Source: an uncultured Candidatus Saccharibacteria bacterium
GTDB taxonomy: Bacteria > Patescibacteriota > Minisyncoccia > Phycocordibacterales > DATGWK01
NCBI GenBank assembly: GCA_964428845.1
Contig: CAYRZH010000001.1
Location: forward strand, 138,990-202,989
Direction: 5' to 3'
DNA: 64,000 bases
Of the stretch, positions 34,441 to 56,034 are shown in pieces; position 1 is the stretch's first letter; the number at the start of each line of letters is the position of its first letter. Under the pieces are notes generated by a model. That model had not been told where the DNA came from. It was given only the letters and a program-made list of their open reading frames with translations, and made no database searches. The position numbers were made by a program, and so were the translations under genes.

Positions 34441-34473
34441 GTTTTTCTTTTGGTAAGAAAATATTTAATGCGG
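34441..34473. repeat. 33-bp perfect direct repeat copy 2
   Basis: Identical to 32823-32855. Followed by a 22-codon micro-ORF (34556-34624) MRRIHKENPAYFDVPAFAQKVY, paralogous to the first micro-ORF and bracketed by the inverted repeat ggaaaatcctgcct/aggcaggatttcc. Confidence 0.6.
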
Positions 34474-34650
34474 TGACGATTGGCGGAACTTTGAACCGAT
34501 TTCACGGCCTAGAACAACAGTTTCCTTCAATCGTATAGGTAGAATTGTAAAGGAAATGCGCCGAATTCACAAGGAAAATCCTGCCTATTTTGACGTTCCG
34601 GCTTTCGCCCAGAAGGTCTACTAAGGCAGGATTTCCGCAAGCTTTAGCGA

Positions 34651-34866
34651 TTATTCCTGTCCTCTGGCAATGTCGTTCTCGATCAATTTCTGCTCTTTTA
34701 GGTATCTGGAGACCGAATACCACGCCGCATTGATCACCGGGATCAGTAACGCCCATCGAGGGTCGTTCTGAGCGTAAGCGATCAGTATCGGCAGGATTGC
34801 AGACACTGCGGAGTAAAAGAACACGACTACAAGGTGCTTTAAGGCTTCTTTTGTTGGTGTTGTCAT
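34651..34866 (-). CDS. holin-like small membrane protein (2 TM)
   Basis: 71 aa with two hydrophobic helices and a charged C-terminus, directly downstream of the amidase. Confidence 0.35.
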   Translation of the reverse strand: MTTPTKEALKHLVVVFFYSAVSAILPILIAYAQNDPRWALLIPVINAAWYSVSRYLKEQKLIENDIARGQE

Positions 34867-34871
34867 AGTGG

Positions 34872-35438
34872 TTAAAATGCTCGCTTAATAATTGCCAATC
34901 CCTCCTCGATTTTCCTCACACCGTCCTCGACGGACAGATTGGTTGTTTGTTGGCCGGCAAGCGCGACTAGCTCGTCGATGATCGCTTTGTTACTTGCCGG
35001 GCAGTTTGGTTTCTTTGAGAAAATCTCAAAGTGGCCAACGATGTGATTCCGGTCGATTGGAATCTGCCATCGCTGGCAAATCTCTCGGATCAGGTTTGCA
35101 CTTACTCTTTTCATTTCCTCTGTCCATTGGTCATTAGGCCTTCCCTCATGCTCAATCCCGATCGTGTATAGGTTCGGGTTTAGGTTCGGTCTTATAAGTT
35201 TCCAGACCGGTGCATCGACACGGCCAGCGTGCCACGCGGTATCATTTTCTTGCACGTATTGGTGGACTTCGCCGCTCTTTCCGATTCCGTAGTGTGCGCT
35301 TACTTGCGAAGTGTGGTTTGCAAACCACGAGTCAGTGCCGGCTAGTGTTCCATCCATGATGTGGATGACAATTGCTTCAGGACGGTAACCTTTGCGACCG
35401 ACCCAGAAGTTTGGTGATTTCTTTTGGATGATTTCCAT
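34872..35438 (-). CDS. N-acetylmuramoyl-L-alanine amidase (Amidase_2/PGRP family; phage endolysin-like)
   Basis: IVIHIMDGTL...SAHYGIG...TAWHAG...TIGIEHEG matches the zinc amidase (T7 lysozyme/PGRP) signature. Confidence 0.8.
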   Translation of the reverse strand: MEIIQKKSPNFWVGRKGYRPEAIVIHIMDGTLAGTDSWFANHTSQVSAHYGIGKSGEVHQYVQENDTAWHAGRVDAPVWKLIRPNLNPNLYTIGIEHEGRPNDQWTEEMKRVSANLIREICQRWQIPIDRNHIVGHFEIFSKKPNCPASNKAIIDELVALAGQQTTNLSVEDGVRKIEEGLAIIKRAF

Positions 35439-35442
35439 AAGT

Positions 35443-35667
35443 TTATTTGTTGATGGTTAGTAGTAAGTTAATAATTGCTGTGATCAGACCTCCCACTGAC
35501 GCCGTAGCAATGATCCAGAAAAATCGTTTGAGCCAGTCAACGTCGGTTCCTACTTTCGCTAGATCGGCCAGCATATGTGTCAGGTGATTATCCTTAATTT
35601 CGTTTACGGTCTTTTCGACTCGATCAAGTCGTTCGTCCTGCAATTTGTTTTGGTAGTCATTTTCCAT
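35443..35667 (-). CDS. holin-like protein (coiled N-terminus + single C-terminal TM)
   Basis: 74 aa with a C-terminal hydrophobic helix WIIATASVGGLITAIINLLL, immediately upstream of the amidase. Confidence 0.4.
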   Translation of the reverse strand: MENDYQNKLQDERLDRVEKTVNEIKDNHLTHMLADLAKVGTDVDWLKRFFWIIATASVGGLITAIINLLLTINK

Positions 35668-35672
35668 GTGCG

Positions 35673-38141
35673 TTATTTCGGGACATATACCGAGTCGAAT
35701 CTGTTGATGAGGCCTCTGCTTTCCAATTCCTCCTCGAGTCGGTCTTGAATGTCTCGATCACGCCAGAACTTTTCTTTTTCCATATCGACTGACTTTGCTT
35801 TTGCACCGACGAGTCCATAAAGAAACTTAATGACGCCAGACGTGTTGTCATCCGAGAGCTTGCCAGCTGTGGTATAGAAGCGACCAAGAGCGGTGTTCAG
35901 GAAGTGGAGCTTATAAGCATTGGCTCGATAGCTCACATCGCCGTTTTTATTCTTATGCTCAGAAACCTCGAGCCAGTCACGCAGTCCTGGGACGGCATTC
36001 ACGAACGGATAAACACGGCTTCCTTCTTTGATCGGCTCACCAGTGAATAGGTTCTGGCCGGTGGCCGCTTCGATTGGATACTTCAAGATCGGTGAAAGTT
36101 CGCCGACCATGCTCGCCAGCGTTCGCCGTGGGCTTCCTTTATAGAGTCGGTTGATATCCTCGACCGGCAACCCCAGACCGTAGAGGTATTGCGAGAATCC
36201 GTTTTTCTCACCAAGTCGGACCGGCAATCCCTCTCGCATGTACGGAGGCAGATACTGGAATTCCTCTTTGGCTTTTTCTTTGTCGACTTGGAGGTTGTCT
36301 ACAAACTTACCGATGGCGGCGTATTTACCCGGTTGCTTCACCATTTGCTCTAGCTGAAGCGGAATGTTGCCACGAGTCCATCGGTAGAACGGCAACAGTC
36401 GCTTCATAATGTTTTGCTCGAACGGTGCGAGTGCCTCTGGTGCGTAGTCGAAGTGGAACTGGAACACCGACTTTGCGGCTTGCTCAGGTGCATCACCCTT
36501 GATCAAGCGATCGACGAAGAGAGGCAGACGCAATCGGTTCTCGGTGATCTCCATTGCGTTTTTTGGCAGATCCATGAGCTTGCCGACTGCACCTTTGCCC
36601 ACGTCTTTTTCGACTTCACGCATCACATCCAAGTAACCAGGCTGTCCTACTACTCCCAGTTTCTCGGCAAGTTCTTTTATTTGCTGGTAGGTGTATTTCG
36701 TCCCCAGTGTGGTTGTGATCGATCCTTTAGCACCCCGAGCGATTTGATCTCCTTGCAGATATCGTGCAGGATTTTTGACTCCAGCTATAAAGTTATTGAA
36801 AACTCCACCGATCGAGTTTCGAACGTGGAATGCTGGAAACCATCCGGTCACTGATCCTTTCCAGAATCCAAGAGCTTTGTCGTAGATTTTAAGAAAGCCC
36901 TTTGTCGCCTCATCGCTTGTCAGCACTTTATAGGTTTCCTCAACGTGCTTCACGATCTGTTCGGGCAAAAGTACGCCTTTGAGTTGAGGCACGGTGCTTT
37001 CGACATATCGCATTCCATTATCGAAGATCGGCTTGGCGGTTTCTTTTTTCACCATCTGTCCGCTTATCGGATGCTTGAATTCTTTGGTGATCATTTCTGC
37101 TTGCTTACCAAACTGCTTGCCGACGTCGGTTAGGAAGTCATAGGTATTCACGGCTTTGATGTGCTCGGCTTTGCGAGCACCGAACGCTTTGAATGCGTCT
37201 TGCTCAAAGAGCTTCACGCCGTGAGTCTTGCGGAAGTAATTATTGATATTTACGATCGTGTCATCGAGGTTTCTTTCTTTTGCGAACGGAGTGCTTACTC
37301 TCGTCTTTTGCAGAAGCTCTTGTGCAACGTCAGTATTCTTTACGAGAAACTCACGACCCTCCGGTGTCAGGTAGTGACGCAAATAATCCGGAAGTTCGGT
37401 ATCAAGGAGTCCTCGCTCTTTTTCCAAAGATGCAAAGCGTTTATGTTCTCCTTGGATGCGACCGATGATACTGTCGATGACGCTGTTTCTTTTGGCGGCG
37501 ACTTGCTCGACTCCATCGGCCGCCTTTGCAGGAATATCCGCCATTCCCTCGATCAATCGGCCGACTCTAGTACCAGCATCTTTTCCGAGTTCTTTTTTCG
37601 CGGTCTTACCCAGCTCAATCGCTTCATCGGCGGCTTTTCCGACTTCGGATCGGGTTGCTTTAGTAAATTGTGAAAACTTATCCACATAGTCCTCGCCGAT
37701 TCGTTCGGGCAGGTCTTTGATGCTTTTAAACGGTACGAATGCTTTACCAGCAAGGTCTTTTGCACTCTCGTACAATTTGCCGACTACCGGTGTTTTTTCT
37801 GCGATCCAATCGGCCGCCTTGAATGGTGCGGTGACCGCACTTCGAGGCAACACTTGAACACCAGCAACTTTGAGACCCCCTTTGGCCAGTAACTTTTCGC
37901 CTCCTGCCGCAAGTACCTTTTCAGCAAGGGTTTTTCGTGCGGCTGTTTCGCCGACTTCTAGGATTGATTTCTTAAGAAGTGACGTCCCGGTCTTACTTAA
38001 TATGACTGTACCGGCTTTAGTTGCGAGTTTCGCACCGGCCCCGTAGCCGAATGTGATGTAGGTTGTCGGATCAAGCAGGATATCTGCGATAAATCCACCG
38101 ACTTTGCTTTTGATACCAAGTGGGACGGTCTGCACACTCAA
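35673..38141 (-). CDS. large 822-aa hypothetical protein, likely phage/mobile-element structural or injected protein
   Basis: Ala/Lys/Gly-rich N-terminal ~200 aa followed by a large globular region. Heads the lysis cassette. No catalytic motif recognised. Confidence 0.4.
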   Translation of the reverse strand: MSVQTVPLGIKSKVGGFIADILLDPTTYITFGYGAGAKLATKAGTVILSKTGTSLLKKSILEVGETAARKTLAEKVLAAGGEKLLAKGGLKVAGVQVLPRSAVTAPFKAADWIAEKTPVVGKLYESAKDLAGKAFVPFKSIKDLPERIGEDYVDKFSQFTKATRSEVGKAADEAIELGKTAKKELGKDAGTRVGRLIEGMADIPAKAADGVEQVAAKRNSVIDSIIGRIQGEHKRFASLEKERGLLDTELPDYLRHYLTPEGREFLVKNTDVAQELLQKTRVSTPFAKERNLDDTIVNINNYFRKTHGVKLFEQDAFKAFGARKAEHIKAVNTYDFLTDVGKQFGKQAEMITKEFKHPISGQMVKKETAKPIFDNGMRYVESTVPQLKGVLLPEQIVKHVEETYKVLTSDEATKGFLKIYDKALGFWKGSVTGWFPAFHVRNSIGGVFNNFIAGVKNPARYLQGDQIARGAKGSITTTLGTKYTYQQIKELAEKLGVVGQPGYLDVMREVEKDVGKGAVGKLMDLPKNAMEITENRLRLPLFVDRLIKGDAPEQAAKSVFQFHFDYAPEALAPFEQNIMKRLLPFYRWTRGNIPLQLEQMVKQPGKYAAIGKFVDNLQVDKEKAKEEFQYLPPYMREGLPVRLGEKNGFSQYLYGLGLPVEDINRLYKGSPRRTLASMVGELSPILKYPIEAATGQNLFTGEPIKEGSRVYPFVNAVPGLRDWLEVSEHKNKNGDVSYRANAYKLHFLNTALGRFYTTAGKLSDDNTSGVIKFLYGLVGAKAKSVDMEKEKFWRDRDIQDRLEEELESRGLINRFDSVYVPK

Positions 38142-38270
38142 AAAATCACCGCTCTTGAAAAGCAGTGTACCCAGTTCACCGCCCTTTCCGGTGATCTCAT
38201 TAAGGCAGAAATTACAAACAGTCTCGATACTGACGCTCTTACTCAGAAGCTCAAAACTGCTTTCTCTGGC

Positions 38271-38948
38271 ATGAATATCAAAGAAGAGAAGATCGATAAA
38301 ATCTGCCAGTGCTTGATGAAAGCCAGTGATCCGCTGGCCGAGTGGAACGGCATTTTGTCAGAACTTGAAAAGCTTGCTCTGCACTCTACGGAGGGACCCG
38401 AAGAAATGCCGGATACCCCGATTCTCAATAAGTGCAGTTTTATCGATACAGAACGCACAAGAATTGCGACAAGCTTTGACTCTGCACGATGGATCGATCT
38501 ATCTGTCGCAGAGCTTGAATTTAACCCCAAATTTTCTTACTGCACCAATAAAACAAAAAAGGACTATATCGGGTTTTCGGATGCATCAGCTGGCCAACAG
38601 GCAACAGCTTTGCTTACCGTCCTGTTGAACCAGCCGGGTGCGCCACTCATCATCGATCAGCCAGAAGACGATATCGACAGCAAAATGTTCAAAGATATCG
38701 TACAGCAGGTTTGGAGGGCTAAGAGTAAACGCCAGCTTATTTTTGCGAGCCACAGTGCGAACTTTGTCGTTAATGGTGATGCCGAGCTGGTGGTCTGTTG
38801 CGATTACATAAAGGCTGGTGACCAAACCCGTGGATCAATCAAAGCTATGGGTGCGATCGATAAAAAGGAAATCAAAGAAGAAATTATCCTCGTCACTGAG
38901 GGTGGACGTGACGCATTCAAATTGCGTATGGATCAATACGGATTCTAA
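38271..38948 (+). pseudogene. truncated ABC/SMC-type ATPase: C-terminal half only (signature, Walker B, D- and H-loops), no Walker A
   Basis: FSDASAGQQATALL (signature-like), PLIIDQPEDDID (Walker B), IFASHS (H-loop). The frame is open back to a stop at 37998-38000 with no Walker A and no canonical start. It abuts the 3' end of the 822-aa gene. Confidence 0.5.
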
Positions 38949-38968: not shown

Positions 38969-39406
38969 ATGCTTTCACAAATTCAAAAAGTAATAAAATT
39001 TCCCATAATCCTAGCTACTCTAGGTGTTCTTACTTTTGGATTTGTGTGTACGGGCATGGCAAGCCACGTTTCAATGCACGACGCAGACATGAATTCTACT
39101 GAGATAATAATATCAGGTGCTAATCAACAAGAATGTTGTAATACTAGCTTTTCTAAAAACATTGATACATGGAAGAACATTGTCTTAACAATTCCCGACA
39201 AGACACGAGATGCATTGTCACTACTCTTACTCGGACTGGTACTTGTTTTGGGATATAGTTGGGTGTCGCTCTGGAACCGGCGTCCTCCTATTGAGCTCGA
39301 TACGGGGCGGTTACGCCTCTACATCAGGGAAAATCCCAATCTGATACTTTTCAATCACCTGAAGCTCGCTTTTGCGCGCGGTATTCTCAATCCAAAAATC
39401 TACTAG
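38969..39406 (+). CDS. hypothetical membrane protein (first gene of AT-rich island)
   Basis: TM N-terminus and Cys pair (QQECCNT). AT-rich. Confidence 0.3.
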   Translation: MLSQIQKVIKFPIILATLGVLTFGFVCTGMASHVSMHDADMNSTEIIISGANQQECCNTSFSKNIDTWKNIVLTIPDKTRDALSLLLLGLVLVLGYSWVSLWNRRPPIELDTGRLRLYIRENPNLILFNHLKLAFARGILNPKIY

Positions 39407-39416
39407 TGGGTTTTTA

Positions 39417-39462
39417 AACAGCGTTGATCCGTAGTAACGGATCGTCTTAACGCTGTTTTATA
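39417..39462 (+). terminator. nested hairpin terminator (aaacagcgtt[gatccgt-agta-acggatc]...aacgctgttt + T-run)
   Basis: Outer 9-bp and inner 7-bp perfect stems followed by ttttatatt. Confidence 0.5.
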
Positions 39463-39500
39463 TTATTCGCTTAATTACTTAAATCTAATCACAATTAATT

Positions 39501-40253
39501 ATGGAACACGAAACAAAAGCACCAGAAACATCGCCGACACAACAAAATAACTTATCAATTCCCGTAGCGATCGTAATTGCCGGAGTACTTATTGCTGGAG
39601 CATTGTATCTCGGCACATCGAAAGGTGCATCCACGACCACAGTAAATAATCAGCAACCGCAACAAGTGGCACAGCCAACTGGTGATCTTGAAGCCATGAA
39701 AGCTGTCGCAAGCGGTGATCATGTTCGAGGCAACCCAGATGCACCGGTTAAAATCGTAGAATACTCGGACCCGGAATGTCCGTTCTGCAAACGATTTCAT
39801 GACACAATGAAGCAGGTCATGGATGAGTATGGTAAGGACGGTAAGGTCACTTGGGTCTATCGCAATTTTCCACTCGATCAACTTCATCCAAAAGCTCGCA
39901 ATGAGGCCACAGCCATTGAATGCGCTGGTGACCTCGGTGGCAACGATAAATTCTGGGCATACGCTGATCGCCTCTACGAGATCACTCCATCTAACAACAA
40001 TCTTGATCCGGCAGAGCTTCCAAAAATTGCTCAGTATGTCGGTCTTGATGTAGGTAAATTCAACACATGCCTTACGAGTGGTAAATTCACGAAGCACATC
40101 GAGGATGATGTTCAAAATGCAACTGCAACTGGCGGTAATGGCACACCATGGAGCATTGTAGTCGACAAAAATGGTAAGAAATATCCTCTTTCCGGTGCCC
40201 AGCCGTATGCTTCGGTAAAACAACTTATTGATCTTGCATTGCAAGGCAAATAA
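39501..40253 (+). CDS. DsbA-like thiol:disulfide oxidoreductase (thioredoxin fold, CPFC active site), membrane-anchored
   Basis: N-terminal TM. YSDPECPFCKRFH active site. DsbA-like helical insertion. Confidence 0.75.
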   Translation: MEHETKAPETSPTQQNNLSIPVAIVIAGVLIAGALYLGTSKGASTTTVNNQQPQQVAQPTGDLEAMKAVASGDHVRGNPDAPVKIVEYSDPECPFCKRFHDTMKQVMDEYGKDGKVTWVYRNFPLDQLHPKARNEATAIECAGDLGGNDKFWAYADRLYEITPSNNNLDPAELPKIAQYVGLDVGKFNTCLTSGKFTKHIEDDVQNATATGGNGTPWSIVVDKNGKKYPLSGAQPYASVKQLIDLALQGK

Positions 40254-40255
40254 AC

Positions 40256-40804
40256 ATGTTATTTCAAGCTCTGCAAAAAATATTCCGAAGGCCAATGTAT
40301 ATGCTCCTCGCTCTCATCACGAGCTCGGCAGTATTTGCATTCGCCGTATGGCTTCCAAACATTCCATTGATTGTGAAAGTTATGGGACACCCGGGAATAT
40401 CGCTTACGCAGAAGTTTGATCTACCAATCAGTCTCCTGGGCTCAATTGTTACTAACTTCACCTTGCTGTCCGCTTCGTATACCATCGCCATAGCCATTCT
40501 TTTTGGAATGAACGTGTCGATGATCGTGTACTTCTTGCGACGAAGAATCGACGATGTAAAGCAGACGGGAATGACAACAGGACTATTCGGAATTACGAGT
40601 GGAGTCATTGGTATGGGATGCGCCGCATGCGGATCGTTTCTCCTGACCAGCATACTTTCGCTTGTTGGAGCATCGGGAATATTGGCATTCTTGCCTCTGA
40701 ATGGCGGTGAATTCGGTATCCTCGGCGTAGTCCTACTAGGGACGTCGCTCTACATGACGGCAAAGAAAATCCAAAATCCTGCAGTCTGTAAAATTAACCC
40801 TTAA
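40256..40804 (+). CDS. polytopic membrane protein with intramembrane CxxC (GCAACGS); candidate DsbB/VKOR-like partner
   Basis: About 5 TM helices and one CxxC pair. Position right after the DsbA-like gene. Confidence 0.35.
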   Translation: MLFQALQKIFRRPMYMLLALITSSAVFAFAVWLPNIPLIVKVMGHPGISLTQKFDLPISLLGSIVTNFTLLSASYTIAIAILFGMNVSMIVYFLRRRIDDVKQTGMTTGLFGITSGVIGMGCAACGSFLLTSILSLVGASGILAFLPLNGGEFGILGVVLLGTSLYMTAKKIQNPAVCKINP

Positions 40805-40809
40805 TAACC

Positions 40810-41388
40810 ATGAATAATAAAAATGTACAAATATCAATTGCCCTCGCCCTGCTTCTCGTAGGCGGTGCATGGTATCTTGCATCCTCGAAAGAGGACGGGG
40901 CTTCTCCGTTTGTAGCAAACACTGCTCTTGCGGCTAAATTCGACATGCTAAGTAAAAATGGAAATTCTTCGTGCTCGGGTGCGTTCAAAGACTCCATCAA
41001 TAGCATGCCGGAGACTGGCCGGATTCAAGGCTCGTGTTGCAGTCCAATGGATATGCATCGCTACGAAGAGCAAGTTACCGGACTTGAGAAGTATAAAGAC
41101 ATTACAGAGATTCCCTCAGACCCATATGACATCGATGCCAGCTTGGCCAAAAAGCTCAAAGCGTATTACGACGTAGAACTCACACCGGAACAGCAAAAAG
41201 CATACGACTATGCAATGGCAAACTCGATGGAAAAAGGCCCTTGCTGTTGTAAGTGCTGGCGATGGTATGTCTATGGAGGTCTAGGAAAATTACTAATCCA
41301 AAAATATAACTTCACTGGCGAGCAAGTCACTGAAATCTGGAATCTGTCTGATGGATGTGGCGGAGCCGGTGATCATGTAACTCACTAA
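40810..41388 (+). CDS. secreted Cys-rich protein (CSGAF...SCCSP...GPCCCKCWRW...DGCGGAGDH)
   Basis: Signal peptide and about 10 cysteines in CC/CxC clusters. Confidence 0.3.
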   Translation: MNNKNVQISIALALLLVGGAWYLASSKEDGASPFVANTALAAKFDMLSKNGNSSCSGAFKDSINSMPETGRIQGSCCSPMDMHRYEEQVTGLEKYKDITEIPSDPYDIDASLAKKLKAYYDVELTPEQQKAYDYAMANSMEKGPCCCKCWRWYVYGGLGKLLIQKYNFTGEQVTEIWNLSDGCGGAGDHVTH

Positions 41389-41393
41389 ACACT

Positions 41394-41936
41394 ATGGACA
41401 ATAATCAACCACTTGAACAATTAAGTAAGAAAGAACGTAAAGAACTCAAACGACAGGAAAAAATGGAGGCTAAAATTGCGGTCGTTCAAACACGTCGCAC
41501 AAAGAAAATCATCCGATGGATTGGGTGGAGTGCATTCAGCGTTGCGACTATTGCAGGTCTTGTTTGGTTGGTCGCCTCAAGACCTCCAATTCCAGAATCT
41601 GATATCGTTTCCCGAAGTGCCTTTCATTGGCATCCGGAAGTTGCAATCTATGTAAAAGGCGAGAAACAAGAGATTCCAGCCAATATCGGTATCGGTTCGG
41701 TTCACCAACCTATTCACACTCATACAGATGATAATAAACAAGGAGTCGTCCATCTAGAATTTCAAGGGCTTGCCAGAAAGCAAGATGTCTCACTCGGTCA
41801 GTTTTTCAAAAACTGGGGTAAGGACATGCGCTCATTCGGCGCGAACATGAAGATGACCGTAAACGGGGAGGAAAATACCGAGTACGAGAATTACGTCATG
41901 CGTGATAAAGACAAAATTGAGATTCGGTTCGACTAG
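41394..41936 (+). CDS. membrane-anchored His-rich protein (HWHPE...HQPIHTHTDD)
   Basis: N-terminal TM and His clusters suggestive of metal binding. Confidence 0.3.
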   Translation: MDNNQPLEQLSKKERKELKRQEKMEAKIAVVQTRRTKKIIRWIGWSAFSVATIAGLVWLVASRPPIPESDIVSRSAFHWHPEVAIYVKGEKQEIPANIGIGSVHQPIHTHTDDNKQGVVHLEFQGLARKQDVSLGQFFKNWGKDMRSFGANMKMTVNGEENTEYENYVMRDKDKIEIRFD

Positions 41937-41987
41937 GTTATACACAGTTTACCACCTTGACCAATAGGGTATGGGGGTATATACTAA

Positions 41988-42404
41988 TTGGGTAACCTTA
42001 TGAAATATCTTGCAACATTAATGCTAATAACAAGCTTTGCCGGAATAGGCGTTTTTGGCTTTACGCTTGTTGACCATGCCATGATGGATGGTTCAAATAG
42101 TGATTGTGTTGCTTCGGCCATAGATGGAACAGAGTGCCCTACGAACATTATGGCTATGACTTCGCACCATGTTTCCGCCATGCAAACGCTTACGACAACA
42201 TTACCGGCAAATTCCAATTGGCTTTTATTACTTGCATCTCTGCTTCTTGTTTCGGTTTCAGTATTCCTATTCTTCAAAGACTTACTACTTCCAAAACTGG
42301 AGTCTTTACCCCAGCGTCTACGGGACCTAACACTTCACTCTCTTTATAGCAAACAAAAAATCATCTCTTGGCTTTCTCTATTTGAGCTTAGCCCTTCCCT
42401 GTAG
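41988..42404 (+). CDS. small membrane protein
   Basis: Two hydrophobic helices. Confidence 0.25.
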   Translation: MGNLMKYLATLMLITSFAGIGVFGFTLVDHAMMDGSNSDCVASAIDGTECPTNIMAMTSHHVSAMQTLTTTLPANSNWLLLLASLLLVSVSVFLFFKDLLLPKLESLPQRLRDLTLHSLYSKQKIISWLSLFELSPSL

Positions 42405-42514
42405 TAACAGCACGCATTAAGCGCAAGCTTTTTTCGTGCTGTTTTTAATATCCTTTTTCGAGGATATTTTTGTTATTTACTAACCTAAATTAATAACTGC
42501 ATGAAAAAAATTAT

Positions 42515-43381
42515 ATGGAAACACTCATAGGAACATCACTGATTGCAGCGTTCGTGGCGGGAGTCGCCGCACTCTTTGCCCCATGTTGTATCACAGTCCT
42601 ACTCCCATCATATTTGGGCAATATCTTCAAAGAGAAGTACAAAATCTTCTTTATGACTTTTGTCTTTTTCTTGGGAGTTTTGACGGTCTTTCTGCCGATC
42701 GGATTGGGAGCTTCATATCTCGCTCAACTATTCAGCGAATATCACAATATAATCTTTACTGTTGGCGGTATCTTCTTGGTTGTGCTGGGGCTAACAATGC
42801 TCCTTGGAAAGAAGTTCGCTACTCCGACATCTGTTCGTGACGGAATGAAGCGGCATGTCTCATCGATCTACGTTCTCGGTATTTTCTCGGCGATTGCCAC
42901 CACATGCTGTGCGCCGGTGCTGGCAGGAGTACTGACGCTTGGGGTTGCAAGCGGCACGATTGTGTGGGGCGCGCTGTATACCCTCGCCTACGTAGTCGGC
43001 ATGACGTTGCCACTGTTCATCATTGCGGCATTCCTCGACAAGGCAAATTTGACCGAACGATTCACTAACGCAAAGAAAACGGTAGCGATGAGGATCGGCG
43101 GTTTCAGTTGGCGTATTACCGTTTCAGAACTGATCTCCGGACTGATATTCCTCTTGATGGGTAGCTATATAACCTACCTGGCCTTCAGCAATAAATTATT
43201 CACCCATTCAAGCTATCAGTTGGAAATGAACCTATGGAACGCCAAATTCTTAGGTGCCATTAATGGCTTCGTGACCTTAGTACCCGAATACATCTGGGCG
43301 CTTCTGTTCATCGGCATAGTGGCGAGCATCTCGTACGTATTTATCAAGCAATATAAAAAACAAAAATATGAGCAAAAATAA
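42515..43381 (+). CDS. CcdA/DsbD-like transmembrane disulfide reductant transporter
   Basis: About 6-8 TM helices. Cys pairs in the first TM region (FAPCCITV) and a later region (TTCCAPV), as in the cytochrome c biogenesis CcdA/DsbD_2 family. Confidence 0.5.
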   Translation: METLIGTSLIAAFVAGVAALFAPCCITVLLPSYLGNIFKEKYKIFFMTFVFFLGVLTVFLPIGLGASYLAQLFSEYHNIIFTVGGIFLVVLGLTMLLGKKFATPTSVRDGMKRHVSSIYVLGIFSAIATTCCAPVLAGVLTLGVASGTIVWGALYTLAYVVGMTLPLFIIAAFLDKANLTERFTNAKKTVAMRIGGFSWRITVSELISGLIFLLMGSYITYLAFSNKLFTHSSYQLEMNLWNAKFLGAINGFVTLVPEYIWALLFIGIVASISYVFIKQYKKQKYEQK

Positions 43382-44033
43382 TAATGACAAGAAAATGCCA
43401 GTAGTTACGATCGTTGTTGTTTCTGTCGCTGTGTTAGCTCTAGGGTATTTCCTATTCAAGAGTTCACCGGATAATTCACAAGCAAAACAAAATGTGGCTA
43501 ATAACACAAATGCGAACATGGATAGTATGCATGGTGGAGGATCGGCTGCGAATAGCGATGCCTTGAATTCTCTTATCGGGAAACCTATGCCCGACATTCA
43601 GTTAAGTGATAAAGATGGAAAAACATATACTGCCGCTGACTTCAAAGGAAAGAACACAGTCTTGTTCTTTAACGAAGGTCTTATGTGCTACCCGGCTTGT
43701 TGGAATCAGATGGCTTCATTCGGCAGTGACGAGAGGTTCAACGGTGATCAGATTCAAGCCATATCAGTTGTAGTCGATTCTGCAAAGGACTGGCAAACAG
43801 CGATAGCCAAAATGCCACAACTCGCCAAAGCTACTACCATGTTTGATGCAAATGCTAATGCCTCTAGGCAGTTGGGCATATTAACAACTGCTTCCTCAAT
43901 GCACAGAGGATCCCTGCCTGGCCACACTTACATAGTTATCGATAAAGAAGGAGTTGTCAGGTATGTGTTCGATGATCCGAATATGGCAATAGCAAACGAT
44001 ATGCTTTTTGCCAAAATCGGAGAATTAAATTAA
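43368..44033 (+). CDS. TlpA/ResA-like membrane-anchored thiol-disulfide oxidoreductase (CYPAC)
   Basis: N-terminal TM. Thioredoxin-like FFNEGLMCYPACWNQ. Start overlaps the upstream stop. Confidence 0.6.
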   Translation: MSKNNNDKKMPVVTIVVVSVAVLALGYFLFKSSPDNSQAKQNVANNTNANMDSMHGGGSAANSDALNSLIGKPMPDIQLSDKDGKTYTAADFKGKNTVLFFNEGLMCYPACWNQMASFGSDERFNGDQIQAISVVVDSAKDWQTAIAKMPQLAKATTMFDANANASRQLGILTTASSMHRGSLPGHTYIVIDKEGVVRYVFDDPNMAIANDMLFAKIGELN

Positions 44034-44045
44034 CAAACCAAAAAT

Positions 44046-44552
44046 ATGGACAAAAAACCAACAATGGAAGAGCTAATTGAAAAAGTTAATAAGCTCAAAG
44101 CTACGGGTGAACTCGATCTTTCAATGGAGGAGGATTTGAGCATAGCCATCATGAATCTCATTAGTCTTGAGGAGCATTTCTTCTTCACTGCCCAAAAAAC
44201 AGGAAAAGACGAATACTTTGATTTGCTCAATCAAACGAGAGAAATTAGAAAACAACTCTTGGCTAAAATGATTAATACACATGAGGGTGAGACATGGTGT
44301 ATTGCAAAGCATCTGCTTGCGACAACAATGCGGTTAATGGAAGTCGGCACTAAGCTTCAATCGTCCGGGAAAAAAGAAGAGTCGAGAGAGATATTCAAAA
44401 AAGCGTATGAAGTTTACTCACTTTTTTGGGCTTTGCGATTGAATCTTATCAGTGTGGCCGAAATGAAAAAAGCCGGAGACAAATCTGACCCTGACAAGCC
44501 GATGACAAAGGAAGATTTACTAAGCAAATTAGTCGATTGCTGTAAGGAATAA
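44046..44552 (+). CDS. hypothetical soluble protein
   Basis: ORF only. Confidence 0.25.
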   Translation: MDKKPTMEELIEKVNKLKATGELDLSMEEDLSIAIMNLISLEEHFFFTAQKTGKDEYFDLLNQTREIRKQLLAKMINTHEGETWCIAKHLLATTMRLMEVGTKLQSSGKKEESREIFKKAYEVYSLFWALRLNLISVAEMKKAGDKSDPDKPMTKEDLLSKLVDCCKE

Positions 44553-44569
44553 TCAATTAAAAAATAAAC

Positions 44570-45469
44570 ATGGAAAACGAAAAGGAACACGAAATACAAG
44601 AGGAACTAGTTCAAGAAGACCCAAAAAAGTTTAGTGATAAATATATGCTCCCAATAGCCGTTGTCATCGCGGGAGTCATGGTCGCAGGAGCCATGATCTA
44701 TAACTCTGGAAATCAATCACTACAGGCACAGGCGACGAAAAATTCAAATTCCCAAAATGCTCAAGTAGGGATAGTCGACGGTGGGCGCATACTACCTTTG
44801 GAGACAGAGGAAAAGATGCTTGCCACGCTAACTGCCAACGGTTCTATTGATCCTGCAAAATTGTCTCAAGTAACAGAACTTAACTTGCTCTGGGCATTTG
44901 GCTTAGCGAACAAGAATCAAGTTTTAGAGAGCGGACCTATTATGGACCCAAGATATGGCGGCCCTACAAATATGGCATCGGTTGGAGGCTGGACGGTAAC
45001 AACCGGATCGGTAATGGATCATTACAACAAACATACTCTGGCCACTCTCACGGGAGATCAGCAGGCACTTGTGGAGAAAATTGCAAAAGGAATTTACAGA
45101 CCGTGTTGCAACAATTCAACATATTTCCCGGACTGCAATCATGGCATGGCCATGCTCGGACTTCTTGAATATCTAGCGTCACAAGGAGCAACGGAAGACC
45201 AAATATGGAATGCGGCGATAACGGCCAATATGAGTTGGTTCCCGGATCAATACCAGACAATCTCACAGTATCTAAAAATAAAAGGTATCGATGCAAAAAT
45301 CATAACTCCGCAAATGCTTCTTGGTGCAGAGTACTCAAGTGGTTCGGGGTTTGCAAAGATCGCCGCTCAAGTTCCCCAGTCAGGGCAACAGAAGGGTGGA
45401 AGCGGTTGCGGAGTCGGGACCGGAGAGACGGTTGCGCCACAGCGACAGCAGGGCGGATGTGGAATCTAG
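44570..45469 (+). CDS. membrane-anchored Cys-containing hypothetical protein (RPCCNNSTYFPDCNHG)
   Basis: N-terminal TM and Cys cluster. Gln/Gly-rich C-terminus. Confidence 0.3.
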   Translation: MENEKEHEIQEELVQEDPKKFSDKYMLPIAVVIAGVMVAGAMIYNSGNQSLQAQATKNSNSQNAQVGIVDGGRILPLETEEKMLATLTANGSIDPAKLSQVTELNLLWAFGLANKNQVLESGPIMDPRYGGPTNMASVGGWTVTTGSVMDHYNKHTLATLTGDQQALVEKIAKGIYRPCCNNSTYFPDCNHGMAMLGLLEYLASQGATEDQIWNAAITANMSWFPDQYQTISQYLKIKGIDAKIITPQMLLGAEYSSGSGFAKIAAQVPQSGQQKGGSGCGVGTGETVAPQRQQGGCGI

Positions 45470-45566
45470 TTATACACAGCACTAGTTGACATATAGGGTA
45501 TAGGGGTATAGAGTATAGGTAAAGGTCGATAATAATCAATCTAAATTACCCTATAAACCCTAAATC

Positions 45567-45839
45567 ATGTTAGATCAAAAGTTAAAAAAGAAAGCTACCC
45601 ACCGAGCCAAAATCATTCGCGGCCAGATGGACGGCTTAATAAAAGCAATCGAAGATGAGAAGTATTGTGTTGATTTGATAACGCAGTCTCGATCAATCCA
45701 GCTCTCACTCAAAAGTATGGACAGAGTGCTTCTTGCCAATCACCTTCGAGGCCATGTCAAACACATGCTTAACGATACGAAGCAGGAAAACAAAGCCATC
45801 AAAGAACTCGTTGACCTGTACGCATTGTCAAATAAATAA
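45567..45839 (+). CDS. CsoR/RcnR-family metal-sensing transcriptional repressor (single-Cys variant)
   Basis: 90-aa DUF156-like helix bundle: ...EKYCVDLITQSRSIQLSL...ANHLRGHVKH. Confidence 0.6.
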   Translation: MLDQKLKKKATHRAKIIRGQMDGLIKAIEDEKYCVDLITQSRSIQLSLKSMDRVLLANHLRGHVKHMLNDTKQENKAIKELVDLYALSNK

Positions 45840-45841
45840 CC

Positions 45842-46051
45842 ATGCGCAAAAAAATCACATCATTCTTAAAAAGGTTTGGGATGCACGAGGTGAAAGATCC
45901 TCAAACGTCCTTTGATGTTGTATGCGGCATGGAACTTACACCTGAAAAAATCAAGCACACCATAGAGCATACGGACGGCACCGCTTATCACTTCTGTTCA
46001 AAGTCGTGCAAGGATCATTTCGTCAACGATCCTCAAAAATACGTAGGCTGA
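45842..46051 (+). CDS. YHS/TRASH-domain metal-binding protein (paralog 1)
   Basis: VCGMEL...YHFCSKSCKDHFVNDPQKY matches CGM...Y-FCS..C...F..dP..Y. Confidence 0.6.
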   Translation: MRKKITSFLKRFGMHEVKDPQTSFDVVCGMELTPEKIKHTIEHTDGTAYHFCSKSCKDHFVNDPQKYVG

Positions 46052-46071
46052 TTAAAAATTAATTCAAAAAT

Positions 46072-46311
46072 ATGAAGATGTCAAAAGTGTTGCATGTTGT
46101 CAGCGTTATATCGGGAGTCTTAGGAGTCCTTTCATTTCTCGGTCTGTTTGGTGGAGGAATGATGTCTGGGTTCTCTGGGATGATGGGATATGGTGGGCAA
46201 GGTTACGCATCCATGCCCATGGGTTCAATAGGGTTCTTTTTGATCGCTATTTGGCTCCAGATCGCCACGATTCATCACATGATGCTTGAGAAGAAGGGAG
46301 AGATTGTCTAG
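46072..46311 (+). CDS. small Met/Gly-rich membrane protein
   Basis: MMSGFSGMMGYGGQGYASMPMG with flanking TM helices. Confidence 0.3.
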   Translation: MKMSKVLHVVSVISGVLGVLSFLGLFGGGMMSGFSGMMGYGGQGYASMPMGSIGFFLIAIWLQIATIHHMMLEKKGEIV

Positions 46312-46334
46312 TTAAAAACTAATAATAAAAAATT

Positions 46335-46508
46335 ATGGAAAACGACCATCCATCAAGAAAAGTGTCCGACCCAGTGTGTGGCATGGAGCTTGATATTGAA
46401 AATGTCAGACATTCATTCGAACACGAAGGTACAGAATATTATTTCTGTTCCGAGAAGTGCAAAACTGAATTTATCAATGATCCGGAGAAGTATATTAAAA
46501 AGGATTAA
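46335..46508 (+). CDS. YHS/TRASH-domain metal-binding protein (paralog 2, 57 aa; below ORF-track cutoff)
   Basis: Hand-translated: MENDHPSRKVSDPVCGMELDIENVRHSFEHEGTEYYFCSEKCKTEFINDPEKYIKKD. Confidence 0.55.
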   Translation: MENDHPSRKVSDPVCGMELDIENVRHSFEHEGTEYYFCSEKCKTEFINDPEKYIKKD

Positions 46509-46538
46509 TTATCACTCAATTAATAATTAATAAAAAAT

Positions 46539-46802
46539 ATGAATCTCTCACTAAAATCATATGGCTGGAAATGTGTCCTTGGAGCTGAAGTGGCGTATGT
46601 TCTTTGTGTGTTGGGTGGATTTCTTCCACTAAGATCTGCGGCTGGGATACAGCTTCACCACACTATCTTTGAAACTCTACCGGGTTTTGCTTGGATCAGC
46701 TTCGGTAGTTTCATCCTTGGTGCAGTCTACATGTTCGTCTTTGCTTGGGTTTTCGCTTCCTATTTTGTATGGATGCACAATTCAAGTCTTATCAATAAAT
46801 AA
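46539..46802 (+). CDS. small membrane protein
   Basis: Two TM helices. Confidence 0.25.
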   Translation: MNLSLKSYGWKCVLGAEVAYVLCVLGGFLPLRSAAGIQLHHTIFETLPGFAWISFGSFILGAVYMFVFAWVFASYFVWMHNSSLINK

Positions 46803-46814
46803 TGATTAAACTAT

Positions 46815-47096
46815 ATGCACAACCACAATAAAGACGGAGGAGGCAGAGGAATGATGTGGATGATGATCCCATGCCTACTCCTTGTTGGTGTTCTGTTTCT
46901 TGGTGGAGGCAAGTTGTCTGGAGGTGGATATCTCTGGCCAATTCTTATCGGTGTCTTTGTAATCGCACATGTCTGGATGATGTTAAGAGGACACGGTAGA
47001 CACGGGGATACTAATACGGAAGATAAAATTGATGACGCTTCCGGAAAACAATCTGACACAAAGGATGAACATAAGCATAGCGGCAGTTGCCACTAA
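46815..47096 (+). CDS. small Met/His-rich membrane protein (MHNHNKDGGGRGMMWMM...HGRHGD...HKHSGSCH)
   Basis: Met and His clusters flanking TM helices, suggesting metal binding. Confidence 0.3.
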   Translation: MHNHNKDGGGRGMMWMMIPCLLLVGVLFLGGGKLSGGGYLWPILIGVFVIAHVWMMLRGHGRHGDTNTEDKIDDASGKQSDTKDEHKHSGSCH

Positions 47097-47104
47097 AAAT
47101 CATT

Positions 47105-47746
47105 ATGGAAAACTCCTATGGCCTCTGGCCACTTGTCATCATAAATTCGCTAGTCTTCATTATCTTTGCGTTCAGCTTTACTAAGCCGAAAACATCGAGG
47201 GATTGGCGATCATTTGGCGCATTCTCAGCGTTTCTTGTTGCCCTGTTTACAGAGATGTACGGTTTTCCATTGACGATATATCTTTTCTCCGGCTGGCTCT
47301 CAACCAAGTTCCCTGGTGTTGATTTCTTTGCTCACAATTCAGGACACCTCTTTGAAGACTTCTTTGGCTGGGGTGGCGATCCACACTTCGGACCGTTCCA
47401 TATCGCCAGCTACATCCTAATTTTCTACGGCTTCGTGTTGCTCTCTAAGGCGTGGAAAGTCCTTTATAAAGCACAGCAAGATCATACTTTAGCAACCTCA
47501 GGGCCTTACGCTCGCATTCGCCATCCGCAATATGTTGGTTTCGTACTGATTATGCTCGGATTTTTCTTGCAGTGGCCTACGATCCTCACTCTTATCATGT
47601 TACCGATTCTTGTTTGGATGTATACACGCCTTGCGCGGAGTGAAGAGAAAGACTCTCAAAAAGAATTCGGAGTGGTATGGGATGAATACGCTAAAAAGAC
47701 CCCTTCTTTCATTCCCCGACGGAAAAAATTAACAGCTAATACTTAA
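47105..47746 (+). CDS. isoprenylcysteine carboxyl methyltransferase (ICMT)/phospholipid methyltransferase family membrane protein
   Basis: ARIRHPQYVGFVLIMLGFFLQWPT...RSEEK matches the ICMT/PEMT family signature. ATG at 47105. Confidence 0.55.
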   Translation: MENSYGLWPLVIINSLVFIIFAFSFTKPKTSRDWRSFGAFSAFLVALFTEMYGFPLTIYLFSGWLSTKFPGVDFFAHNSGHLFEDFFGWGGDPHFGPFHIASYILIFYGFVLLSKAWKVLYKAQQDHTLATSGPYARIRHPQYVGFVLIMLGFFLQWPTILTLIMLPILVWMYTRLARSEEKDSQKEFGVVWDEYAKKTPSFIPRRKKLTANT

Positions 47747-47751
47747 ACTAT

Positions 47752-47964
47752 ATGGAAAACAGAATCAAATCATTAATTAAAAAGCTGAGTCGGTTTGGTT
47801 TTAGTGTTAAGCCAAAAAATAAAGGTCATATAGATCCTGTGTGTGGTATGGAAGCATCAGCAGACTTATTCAAGGCTGATTACAAAGACAAAAGCTATTA
47901 TTTTTGTTCCGATCATTGTCAACAACAATTCAAAAAAGACCCAGAAACGTATATCACAAAATAA
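47752..47964 (+). CDS. YHS/TRASH-domain metal-binding protein (paralog 3)
   Basis: VCGMEASADLF...YYFCSDHCQQQFKKDPETY. Confidence 0.6.
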   Translation: MENRIKSLIKKLSRFGFSVKPKNKGHIDPVCGMEASADLFKADYKDKSYYFCSDHCQQQFKKDPETYITK

Positions 47965-47966
47965 TT

Positions 47967-48410
47967 ATGACCAACAACATCGCAAAACCAATTCTATACG
48001 GAACGATTGCAAGCGTGATTCTGCTTGGAGTTTATTTTGCGGTGCTAACACTAGTTTCCGGATGGAGTTTTGCTCAAAGTCAGTTCGCGGATTTCTGGTA
48101 TTTTATTGTCAGCTTGGTAGTAGGTTTCGGAATTCAGATTGCACTTTATCAATACATTAAGGGCTTGGTGCATAGCGGACAAGGCATGGGCAAAGTGGTT
48201 GGCGTATCAGGGACAACCTCCACGGCAGCCATGATTTCATGCTGTGCCCACTATCTAGTCAATCTGGTGCCCATTCTTGGAGTGACAGGACTCGTTACAT
48301 TTGTAGCACAGTATCAGGTTGAGCTCTTCTGGGTGGGTCTTGTTTCTAATATATTTGGTATCGGATATATGGTAACCAGAGTTATTAAATTCAAAAAAAA
48401 TCATGAGTAA
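47967..48410 (+). CDS. membrane protein (4 TM)
   Basis: Start MTNNIAKP at 47967. Hydrophobic throughout. Confidence 0.3.
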   Translation: MTNNIAKPILYGTIASVILLGVYFAVLTLVSGWSFAQSQFADFWYFIVSLVVGFGIQIALYQYIKGLVHSGQGMGKVVGVSGTTSTAAMISCCAHYLVNLVPILGVTGLVTFVAQYQVELFWVGLVSNIFGIGYMVTRVIKFKKNHE

Positions 48411-48855
48411 AGCAATAACAATACTTTCATTAGCACTTGCGTTTATAGGAGGTTTCTTGTTTTTTTATAATCCGAAATCCGCCCCTACTCCTACTCAAGA
48501 AAATTCTTCAGTATCAGAAACGCAACAAAAATGGGAATCTAAAATTAATGATCAGGCGAGTGTAACTGTAACCGTCACGCCGACTCAGCTTTCGGAGGAA
48601 TCGGGAGAATGGAAGTTTGATGTAGTCATGGATACTCACTCCGTTGAATTGGATCAAGACATGACTAAAGTTGCTATACTTATCGATGAACAGGGCAAAG
48701 AATATAAAGCACTTAACTGGGAGGGACCGACCGGAGGCCACCATAGAGAAGGCATCCTTACCTTTGACAAGATAATGCCTACTCCAAAATCTGTTGAACT
48801 AAAGATTTCCAACATAGGGGGTGTTGTCAGAACTTTTAATTGGCAACTTAAATAA
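48403..48855 (+). CDS. membrane-anchored periplasmic beta-rich protein (possible metal chaperone)
   Basis: TM followed by a soluble domain with HH (GGHHREG). Function inferred only from context. Confidence 0.25.
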   Translation: MSKAITILSLALAFIGGFLFFYNPKSAPTPTQENSSVSETQQKWESKINDQASVTVTVTPTQLSEESGEWKFDVVMDTHSVELDQDMTKVAILIDEQGKEYKALNWEGPTGGHHREGILTFDKIMPTPKSVELKISNIGGVVRTFNWQLK

Positions 48856-48856
48856 T

Positions 48857-49564: not shown

Positions 49565-49568
49565 ATTT

Positions 49569-49745
49569 ATGGACAACAAAAATCACAATCAAAAAGTCGA
49601 GGAGAAATTACATAAATGTCCGGAATGCGGTTTGTATTATGAAGACAAATCTCAGATGGAAAAATGCAAAGTATGGTGCAAAGAACATCACAGTTGTAAT
49701 TTAGAAATTACAAGCTATGCCATTGAAAATAAGCAAAATAAATAA
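49569..49745 (+). CDS. 58-aa zinc-ribbon-like protein (CPECG...C..WC)
   Basis: Hand-translated: MDNKNHNQKVEEKLHKCPECGLYYEDKSQMEKCKVWCKEHHSCNLEITSYAIENKQNK. Confidence 0.35.
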   Translation: MDNKNHNQKVEEKLHKCPECGLYYEDKSQMEKCKVWCKEHHSCNLEITSYAIENKQNK

Positions 49746-49746
49746 T

Positions 49747-51987: not shown

Positions 51988-52009
51988 ATAATATAAAATT
52001 AATAAATTT

Positions 52010-52369: not shown

Positions 52370-52374
52370 ATCAT

Positions 52375-53979: not shown

Positions 53980-54133
53980 AAGCTCGTCACAAAGGCAACC
54001 AAAGGGCAAATAGGGCTCTTAAAAGAGTCCTATTGCTTTTCTCAATGTGCTTAATATTTGTAATTATAGGACTAATAATATAGCTATCTCTTGAGTTGAA
54101 AGGATGAGCGTTTTTTGTTAAGATGAATGGCTT

Positions 54134-55909: not shown

Positions 55910-56034
55910 ATTATTCGCTGGGGGTTGCTGGTGCTTGGCGTTGATTCCGGAGCTTCAGAAACCTTTGATCATGGAATTAATTAATAAACGTTTCCGGTCG
56001 GGATCGACTACCTCCCGATCGGCTAACGGGCAAA

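Follow-up and report, generated by a model that had tools for sequence, protein, structure and literature searches.

A probable dead prophage of ultra-small Patescibacteria, apparently fused by internal deletion to a broken phage-borne defence ATPase gene

Genes at the locus

This article concerns a prophage remnant in a stretch of 64,000 nucleotides of contig CAYRZH010000001.1, from an uncultured Candidatus Saccharibacteria bacterium; we call the whole stretch the window, and positions refer to it unless another contig is named. Around 34651 to 38948 lies a short series of genes that a first-pass annotation, made from the letters alone, described as a lysis cassette headed by a large protein and ending at a truncated ATPase; the five open reading frames (ORFs) do lie where it placed them. 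In our opinion the locus is very probably an ordinary dead prophage: the right-hand end of a temperate phage of ultra-small Patescibacteria, fused by an internal deletion to the broken gene of a phage-borne defence ATPase. The features at this end of the element are as follows.

34470-38122, 3.65 kb: right-terminal phage part, with the truncated virion-protein gene and an intact lysis cassette
34651..34866, minus: small holin-like membrane protein of 71 amino acids (aa), last gene of the cassette, with one transmembrane segment and a charged C-terminus
34872..35438, minus: intact endolysin, an N-acetylmuramoyl-L-alanine amidase of the Amidase_2 (PGRP/T7-lysozyme) type, matching PF01510 and PHROG endolysin families
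35443..35667, minus: XhlA/holin-like protein of 74 aa, helical in its N-terminal region and anchored by a C-terminal transmembrane segment at about 49-71
35673..38122, minus: 5'-truncated virion-protein gene, a pseudogene holding codons 123-937 of a 937-aa protein (96% identity); DNA homology ends at 38122
38115..38122: proposed deletion junction, ACCAAGTG, imperfectly (4-8 bp) common to both parental sequences
38115..38948, plus: 3' portion of a TrlF-family PHP/SMC-like ATPase gene, a pseudogene holding codons 653-929, with the PHP domain, Walker A and coiled coil lost

The first-pass annotation took the ORF of 822 aa for a complete gene. In the protein search its residue 8 aligns to residue 123 of proteins of 937 aa and homology starts only there; the TTG 'start' and the first seven codons are antisense ATPase sequence. 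As judged from these alignments, the ORF is an artefact of ORF calling and not a complete gene, and its first 122 native codons are gone. A database search with it brought up about 100 proteins with lengths of 900-1,060 aa; many have exactly 937-938 aa and share 93-96% identity with it. The label 'Ala/Lys-rich' fits it modestly: lysine and alanine make up 10.2% and 8.6% of the whole, and within the first 250 aa the values are 12% for lysine and 13.2% for alanine. The overlap with the ATPase frame, which had been placed in the 3' region of this ORF, is at its 5' end.

The ATPase, on the other strand, is indeed a 3' fragment. Its frame is open back to a TAA at 37998-38000, there is no in-frame ATG, GTG or TTG before 38271, and it holds the C-terminal ABC-type motifs only (positions 227-302 of 304 of the AAA_21 profile). 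Against the NCBIfam model of TrlF (NF045780) it covers positions 671-944 of 944 and scores 184 bits, below the cut-off of 350 bits because the gene is truncated. The PADLOC model of Ppl (PDLC02208) is matched at 2e-25 over about 120 C-terminal residues only, and the score against the Ppl profile (NF042955 / PDLC02208) is 99 bits, where the cut-off is 1000; from these scores we would regard the family as related to Ppl and not as a member of it. Ppl of E. coli is a single-gene defence system, with a PHP 3'-5' ssDNA exonuclease/NTPase (reviewed in PMC12904381). The guess that the fragment is possibly a former defence gene holds: its family, TrlF, is related to an anti-phage protein.

A fragment translated independently and conserved as a short protein would have spoken against the first-pass annotation, and this is not what the homologues show. 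Homologues align along its entire length, including 46 codons upstream of the first ATG; therefore the gene is 5'-truncated and not short. Database entries of 225 aa, which at first sight look like a conserved stand-alone ATPase, are either cut by a contig end or lie directly behind an N-terminal part of 666 aa, and we rejected this candidate. Look-ups of the exact products of the window fragment and of a 145-aa neighbour gave no match, and a literature search on the name 'TrlF' returned only unrelated spectroscopy papers. As an aside, in public contigs the TrlF gene of this clade is frequently found broken: by a frameshift in L005, by a disruption in L016, by an inverted piece in L017, and in L014/L015 by an in-frame interruption that gives 666 + 225 aa and might be a recoded stop.

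An intact relative and the junction

Searching relatives for the intact ATPase, a check that the first-pass annotation proposed, led to the IMG/VR contig UViG_3300025154_002045 (55.9 kb). It was found twice, by way of the closest TrlF fragment and by way of the 937-aa protein in viral contigs, and the version used here was rebuilt from four overlapping loci. Its content, in its own coordinates, is as follows.

Left arm: tRNA-Ser; serine recombinase, 28-1644; small regulators; tyrosine recombinase; 174-aa gene; Cas4-like PD-(D/E)XK nuclease
6894-9683, minus: complete TrlF of 929 aa, with PHP, SMC_N/AAA_23 and AAA_21 matches
Middle: 337-aa gene; two N6/N4 methylases; Fic protein; ATPase, methylase and ParB-like nuclease
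Virion part: large terminase, portal (weak SU10_portal match), capsid, tail genes, LysM protein, then the 938-aa gene and the lysis cassette
33965-36781, plus: 938-aa gene

In this relative the TrlF gene and the 938-aa gene are both complete and divergent, and they stand 26.6 kb apart in one element bounded by attachment (att) sites. The window fragment is 94% identical in amino acids to residues 653-929 of the complete TrlF, which has the N-terminal PHP domain and the Walker A head that are absent from the window. The two sequences share exactly three blocks, in the same order and relative orientation.

Window 56098-59863, relative 3813-29: 79% nucleotide identity
Window 38115-38952, relative 7727-6890: 86% nucleotide identity, 94% in amino acids
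Window 34562-38122, relative 37894-34332: 87% nucleotide identity

Missing from the window, between the second and the third block, is the interval 7728-34331 of the relative, about 26.6 kb with about 27 genes. Three-way alignments with phage and TrlF relatives place the start of TrlF homology at 38115 and the end of phage homology at 38122, so that the two overlap by the octamer ACCAAGTG; at the two parental positions of the relative this octamer reads ACGAAGTG and ACCGAGTG. Gene identities, truncation points and collinearity with the intact relative are thus established by direct comparison, as are the boundaries of the element described below. Because the intact relative is collinear, it was a single internal deletion that truncated both genes and not an insertion into the ATPase gene, and one microhomology-mediated deletion explains both truncations together with the divergent orientation of the stumps.

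The first-pass annotation offered, as one of two readings, a prophage whose insertion truncated a chromosomal ATPase gene of the OLD/SbcC/RecF-like kind. A truncated ATPase gene does abut phage DNA, as such an event would leave it. However, the phage sequence at the join belongs to the inside of a gene, at codon 123, and not to a phage end; the phage really ends at 34470 and at the tRNA-Ser gene near 59766; and the intact relative has the complete ATPase within the same element, 26.6 kb from the complete virion-protein gene. We regard insertion into the ATPase gene as hardly credible. Under the deletion reading, the TrlF gene lies inside the prophage remnant and is best read as phage cargo.

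How close this cargo stands to the known systems can be judged from the full-length relative. A PHP domain at its N-terminus, an SMC/ABC-type ATPase that a coiled coil divides in two, and a C-terminal region matching Ppl at 5.6e-38 are what it shares with Ppl (PDLC02208, NF042955) and TrlF (NF045780). The window differs in keeping the last 277 of 929 codons only, in a Ppl match limited to about 120 C-terminal residues, and in having both scores below the curated cut-offs. The relative's gene also differs in its setting, inside a prophage and beside a Cas4-like nuclease gene, and its defence role is putative. Immediately outside attR of the relative, at 38-47 kb (L007 14065-22569), lies a defence island with SMODS and Cap15 (CBASS-like), a second large serine recombinase and the R subunit of a type I restriction system.

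That no capsid, terminase or tail genes are near, as first remarked, holds for the whole 64-kb window: capsid, terminase, portal, LysM and tail genes of related phages all gave no tblastn match in it. Precomputed profile matches to SU10_MCP and SU10_adaptor occur in the relatives only, and the SU10_portal match of the IMG/VR relative is weak (6e-5).

Ends of the element and the serine integrase

The prophage remnant extends from 34470 to about 59770 and is larger than the stretch first noted; it is bounded by attR on one side and by a tRNA-Ser gene on the other. The suspicion of a degraded prophage is therefore well founded, with the truncated virion gene and the lysis cassette inside an att-bounded element. 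Its further features are these.

34470..34473: right boundary, attR, with a 4-bp core GCGG that is shared with the tRNA-Ser end
34472..34624, plus: detached last 50 integrase codons and stop (...GGDDWRNFEP...NPAYFDVPAFAQKVY*), with no start codon in frame
38969..55309, all plus: copper/redox block of 17 kb, by Pfam matches, within the att-bounded element
55619..58183: retained lysogeny module, with a 96-aa gene, an HTH_36 protein (56035-56676, minus) and a CI-like HTH_3/S24 repressor (57464-58183, plus)
58239..59770, plus: gene of the large serine integrase as far as the crossover; beyond it the ORF continues to 60101 through the tRNA antisense strand, 620 aa in all
59765..59854, minus: tRNA-Ser(TGA), the integration target, on the attL side (ARAGORN, Rfam)

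DNA homology to more than 10 prophage copies stops exactly at 34470, and the flanks beyond are unrelated. A second copy of the core GCGG stands at 59767-59770, at the end of the tRNA-Ser gene, which occupies the same position in three genomes: the window, the IMG/VR contig and contig L070 (GCA_023267075.1). No direct repeat of at least 12 bp was found between the integrase-side and the lysis-side ends. There is an inverted one: the sequence of about 30 bp directly after the tRNA 3' end is an inverted copy of 34476-34506, the same pair occurs on the IMG/VR contig, and the pairs co-vary between the two genomes. Judged by the site architecture of serine integrases (Rutherford et al. 2013, PMC3783163), such inverted arms are what the two attP half-sites should look like at the prophage ends.

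The integrase at the attL end has the motif YGRVSTSRQ on direct reading, and its homologues carry Resolvase, Recombinase and Zn_ribbon_recom domains. Its gene appears to span attP, with the last 50 codons sitting detached beside the lysis genes. If the two ends are joined at GCGG, an in-frame integrase results, of 560 aa in the window and 553 aa in the IMG/VR contig, and both fused products end in …NPA(Y/S)FDVPAFA(Q/V)KVY. More than 12 prophages conserve the detached peptide of 50 codons at the level of protein, and this conservation sets in only with the GGDD codons, at the boundary. The predicted attP contains …GTTGCCAATCTGGCGGTGACGATTGGCGG…, and the predicted empty attB would be the 3' end of tRNA-Ser joined to …ATTAAATATTTTC. 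Given the inverted arms, the tRNA-Ser gene and the in-frame fusion, we dropped the tyrosine integrase of the IMG/VR contig as a candidate for the phage integrase.

Inspection of the C-termini of 33 close integrase homologues is in line with this picture. They agree up to …SGG and then diverge into tails from the antisense strand of a tRNA T-arm (GGEIRTH, EGGIRTL); since all 33 have such tails, all are integrated forms. The protein database gave no un-split integrase, the detached peptide was not found in viral contigs, and neither an excised form nor an empty site was found in the databases.

Attachment sites inside genes are familiar from the tyrosine integrases of SSV1-type archaeal viruses and from the integration-dependent immunity of mycobacteriophages, where integration alters the 3' end of the gene. 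By analogy, the likeness would consist of an attP within coding sequence and of different C-termini in the integrated and the excised state. The present case differs in that the enzyme is a bacterial large serine integrase, that the last 50 codons would be exchanged, and that the prophage form reads into the antisense strand of tRNA-Ser.

Separately, the integrase next to tRNA-Ser on L070 (P0385) is 99% identical to that of the window and adjoins a different isoacceptor tRNA-Ser (CGA, where the window has TGA) and different host genes, which suggests, as far as sequence goes, a recent spread of nearly the same phage between hosts.

The same contig L070 is 91% identical to window 54804-59854, and its end carries an M23 peptidase, an HTH_36 protein, a Cro-like HTH protein, a CI-like HTH_3/S24 repressor, the integrase, tRNA-Ser and then housekeeping genes. 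The lysogeny module of the window has this same 91% nucleotide identity to L070, whose genes match HTH_36, HTH_3 and HTH_3+Peptidase_S24, and 79% to the left arm of the IMG/VR contig. The block of 17 kb between this module and the TrlF stump encodes DsbA-like, DsbD_TM, redoxin, ICMT-like and lycopene-cyclase-like proteins, a copper P-type ATPase, a multicopper oxidase and an M23 peptidase. It is lacking in the IMG/VR relative, which carries a tyrosine recombinase, the 174-aa gene and the Cas4-like nuclease gene instead; its M23 end is common to L070. The block may be phage cargo or a later insertion.

The virion protein, the lysis genes and the history of the element

In contigs L001-L004 the gene of the 937-aa protein is complete and follows a constant series of genes, encoding an SU10-type major capsid protein, a CBM96 protein, a BppU_N protein, an SU10-type adaptor, a 599-aa protein and a 445-aa LysM protein; after it come genes of 75 aa, 188 aa (Amidase_2) and 71 aa, and then unrelated genes. 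Window 34470-38122 is 90% identical in nucleotides to L001 14020-10365, and by tblastn no other part of the phage regions of L001-L004 is present in the window. When one genome of each species was scanned, the gene turned up in 36, and about 30 of these GTDB genomes share the order from capsid through LysM and the 937-aa gene to the lysis genes. Nearly all (about 30) are labelled as Patescibacteria, for example Parcubacteria/Paceibacterota and Yonath-, Vogel-, Nomura-, Magasanikii-, Falkow- and Roizmanbacteria; some automatic taxon labels, such as 'Gammaproteobacteria' on contigs of 0.5-1.5 Mb, look unreliable. Each of the 36 loci either has the full gene as the last one of a virion module or is cut off by a contig end. 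Hence this is not a housekeeping protein unrelated to phages, which would have spoken against a prophage.

As to what the protein does, the AlphaFold model (built with 40 homologues) is mostly helical, with a predicted local distance difference test score of 73 and a predicted template-modelling score of 0.67. Among predicted viral structures (BFVD), 52 match it at E<=1e-3 (best 1.9e-15), and the TM-scores lie at about 0.4 over 800-1,000 columns. These are segments of giant phage proteins, many annotated as 'large polyvalent protein associated', and include gp37 of Microbacterium phage Shocker and proteins of Cellulophaga, Arthrobacter and crAss-like phages. An independent tblastn search places the module at the C-terminal end of ORFs of 1,743 and 1,783 aa that directly precede the endolysin gene in the phages Shocker and DS1. 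Among 1.84 billion representatives searched by profile it was found in 12,441 clusters, and some of these relatives, with 2,500-3,200 aa (up to 3,211 aa), have the module in the interior of the chain. Variants of about 1,060 aa (for example L049 10001-13186) have an insertion of about 120 aa with a motif like that of minimal nucleotidyltransferases, FGSSVEGK…DVDIFV (GS…DxD), and a weak match (2rff at E = 0.08); one member of 1,279 aa (P0104) has a LAGLIDADG_3 (intein-type) domain. A PT-TG match of the family (0.006) was rejected, as it is below the threshold and occurs in two of 40 members only. The protein is most likely, to go by the modelled fold and the gene position, an internal or ejection protein packaged in the virion, and would represent the bare helical core common to giant 'polyvalent' phage proteins.

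A polyvalent protein is defined as combining, in a single polypeptide, at least two domains whose biochemical activities are disparate (Iyer et al. 2017, PMC5512222). The likeness consists of a large late product among virion genes, whose predicted fold matches a module of about 800-1000 residues of giant phage proteins. The 937-aa protein differs in having no recognisable enzymatic domain, so that it falls outside the definition, and its packaging and injection are putative.

We lean, by a narrow margin, towards a wider reading of the integrase and the virion protein: that throughout this prophage family, widespread among Patescibacteria, attP lies inside the integrase gene, whose tail is swapped on integration at tRNA-Ser to give two integrase forms and possibly a switch of directionality or stability, and that the 937-aa protein is the minimal form of an uncatalogued, virion-delivered family of more than 12,000 clusters.

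The lysis cassette is better characterised. The identification of a PGRP-type amidase is amply borne out: the 188-aa protein scores 99.2 bits against Pfam PF01510, where the cut-off is 26 (3.1e-28, profile positions 3-130 of 131), matches many PHROG endolysin families, and is 97% identical in amino acids to its copies in intact prophages. Its H136 and C146 align with the zinc ligands H154 and D164 of AmpD, and its H26, Y50 and K142/143 we take, from reading the sequence against T7 lysozyme, to correspond to H17/Y46/K128. Hence we would consider it, as far as residues can tell, a bona fide Amidase_2 endolysin with zinc and catalytic residues kept. The 74-aa protein also answers to its first description, with one C-terminal transmembrane segment and weak matches to PHROG 1193 'hemolysin' (XhlA-type; 8.9e-5) and to holin PHROG 689 (0.029). 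The 71-aa protein had been called a holin-like protein with two transmembrane segments; one of them is strong (11-31), but the proposed second is only weakly hydrophobic in hydropathy, and searches of PHROG, Pfam and NCBIfam gave no holin or other family match. Its gene follows the endolysin gene directly in about 30 genomes, and both small proteins show the traits expected of putative holins: a transmembrane segment, a charged C-terminus and an endolysin neighbour, an adjacency kept in those about 30 genomes.

In seven loci (L041, L046, L049, L051, L052, L056 and L058, at about 13000-13900) a divergent Amidase_2 allele of 170-171 aa replaces the 188-aa amidase and both genes of small membrane proteins stay constant. 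Such swapping of endolysin alleles is the modular behaviour expected of a lysis cassette. The cassette resembles xhlA-xhlB-xlyA of the Bacillus PBSX/SPbeta-like elements in combining an anchored small protein, an amidase and a second small membrane protein at the end of a late operon. It differs in its order (membrane protein, amidase, membrane protein), in the weakness of the XhlA and holin similarities (8.9e-5 and 0.029), in an endolysin with no recognisable cell-wall-binding domain, and in two divergent Amidase_2 alleles that alternate between constant small proteins. Window 34864-35829 has a counterpart of 100% identity in a Logan contig of 966 bp (L012, from SRR12487036), which means that this public sequencing run contains the same phage sequence.

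Across the retained 815 + 74 + 188 + 71 codons there is neither a frameshift nor an internal stop. With the IMG/VR copy as outgroup, we counted 10 non-synonymous and 104 synonymous substitutions specific to the window, and 7 and 99 in the intact L001 copy; other comparisons are similar. Because this ratio equals that of intact lineages, there is no sign of relaxed selection, and the simplest reading is a recent deletion; on this count the deletion is probably recent.

The same data could also be read as domestication, the second possibility that the first-pass annotation raised, with the large protein as an effector: the host would keep the lysis cassette, with or without the 822-aa product, for programmed lysis, for release of vesicles or DNA, or for an attack on the cell wall of the partner of this episymbiont. 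The three lysis genes are intact and have their catalytic residues, the ratio of non-synonymous to synonymous changes is low (10:104), and apparently useful copper and redox genes lie within the defective element. However, the low ratio is the same as in intact prophage lineages and is explained by a recent deletion; the 822-aa ORF has lost its native start along with the first 122 codons; promoter-like sites are no commoner in 34.3-39.1 kb than in shuffled sequence (3 against 5.0 +/- 2.2), and terminators likewise are not above background; and the truncated arrangement occurs in no other genome or metagenome contig. We consider domestication very unlikely.

Returning to the dead prophage, we propose the following history. 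A temperate phage with a podovirus-like virion module (SU10-type capsid, adaptor and portal) would have integrated at the tRNA-Ser gene of a bacterium of the Patescibacteria, or candidate phyla radiation (CPR). Intact relatives have the order serine integrase, lysogeny module of the CI/Cro type, accessory genes including the TrlF/Ppl-like PHP-ATPase, DNA methylases, terminase, portal, capsid, tail genes, LysM protein, 937-aa protein, 74/75-aa membrane protein, Amidase_2 endolysin, 71-aa membrane protein and attR. One illegitimate, microhomology-mediated deletion of about 26.6 kb would then have taken out everything from trlF codon 652 through codon 122 of the 937-aa gene, about 27 genes with the terminase, portal, capsid and tail genes among them, and would have left two divergent 3' gene stumps fused at 38115-38122. 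Particles could then no longer be formed, and TrlF would be dead, having lost its nuclease and Walker A parts. The lysis genes would be intact and, without the promoter of the late operon, most probably silent; since the operon that drove them is gone, we infer that silence is likely.

Several observations weigh against this account. The junction 40-mer and 24-mer have no match in any other public genome or metagenome contig. A second breakpoint at 38949-38952, where homology to the IMG/VR relative ends 4 bp past the stop codon of TrlF, means that more than one rearrangement occurred; the Cas4-like nuclease gene, which in the relative overlaps the 3' end of TrlF, is absent from the window. The promoter scan was based on a consensus only, which may not apply to CPR bacteria. 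Finally, the role of the 937-aa protein rests on similarity of fold (TM-scores of about 0.4) and on gene position: the family and 40 relatives gave no usable sequence match in Pfam, NCBIfam or the PDB, Foldseek gave no significant match of the model to the PDB, and a Pfam scan of four giant relatives found nothing.

The missing junction k-mers also invite the suggestion that the junction is a chimera of an intact prophage with its own TrlF region, which arose in metagenome assembly, in binning or in whole-genome amplification. The window resembles a contig of a metagenome-assembled genome, the TrlF contigs of the clade show other oddities (the inverted piece of L017 and the split genes of L005, L014 and L016), and amplification chimeras are typically joined at short microhomologies. 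Against it stand the shared sequence of 4-8 bp, which is far under the k-mer lengths of assemblers; the exact order and orientation of the joined pieces, which are those of a simple deletion of a collinear element; and flanks that run on to both sides as consistent sequence for tens of kilobases. A chimera thus seems to us improbable, although less so than domestication. Both the collinear arrangement of the relative and the extreme shortness of the microhomology speak for a real deletion rather than an assembly artefact, and the main residual doubt is whether the junction is present in cells, where we infer that it arose.

Taken as a real deletion, the remnant is of a well-known kind. The cryptic prophages Rac, DLP12 and Qin of E. 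coli K-12 have likewise lost their morphogenesis genes and kept the integrase end and a lysis cassette, with boundaries still recognisable at tRNA genes. The differences here are the host, a member of the Patescibacteria/CPR, the SU10-like capsid with a serine integrase, and a deletion that can be reconstructed from an intact relative to within a junction of 8 bp and is apparently very recent.

As a routine dead prophage, it is a locus on which nothing in the biology of the host hinges, and its value is that of a clean worked example. It illustrates that a widely distributed lineage of temperate phages (36 species-level genomes) is common to Patescibacteria, which had long been considered prophage-poor; that such phages carry defence genes, TrlF/Ppl-like here, with CBASS and restriction-modification genes next door; and that a single microhomology deletion can destroy both a phage and the defence gene that it carries. 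The parts most worth following are, in our opinion, the serine integrase that is seemingly split by its own attP and the very large family of virion proteins that has no Pfam coverage.

Outside the element, window 27000-33000 has a GC content of 0.51-0.54, against 0.42-0.46 elsewhere, and encodes a single-chain PurL of 1,285 aa and a CMAS-type methyltransferase; this region may have been acquired horizontally.

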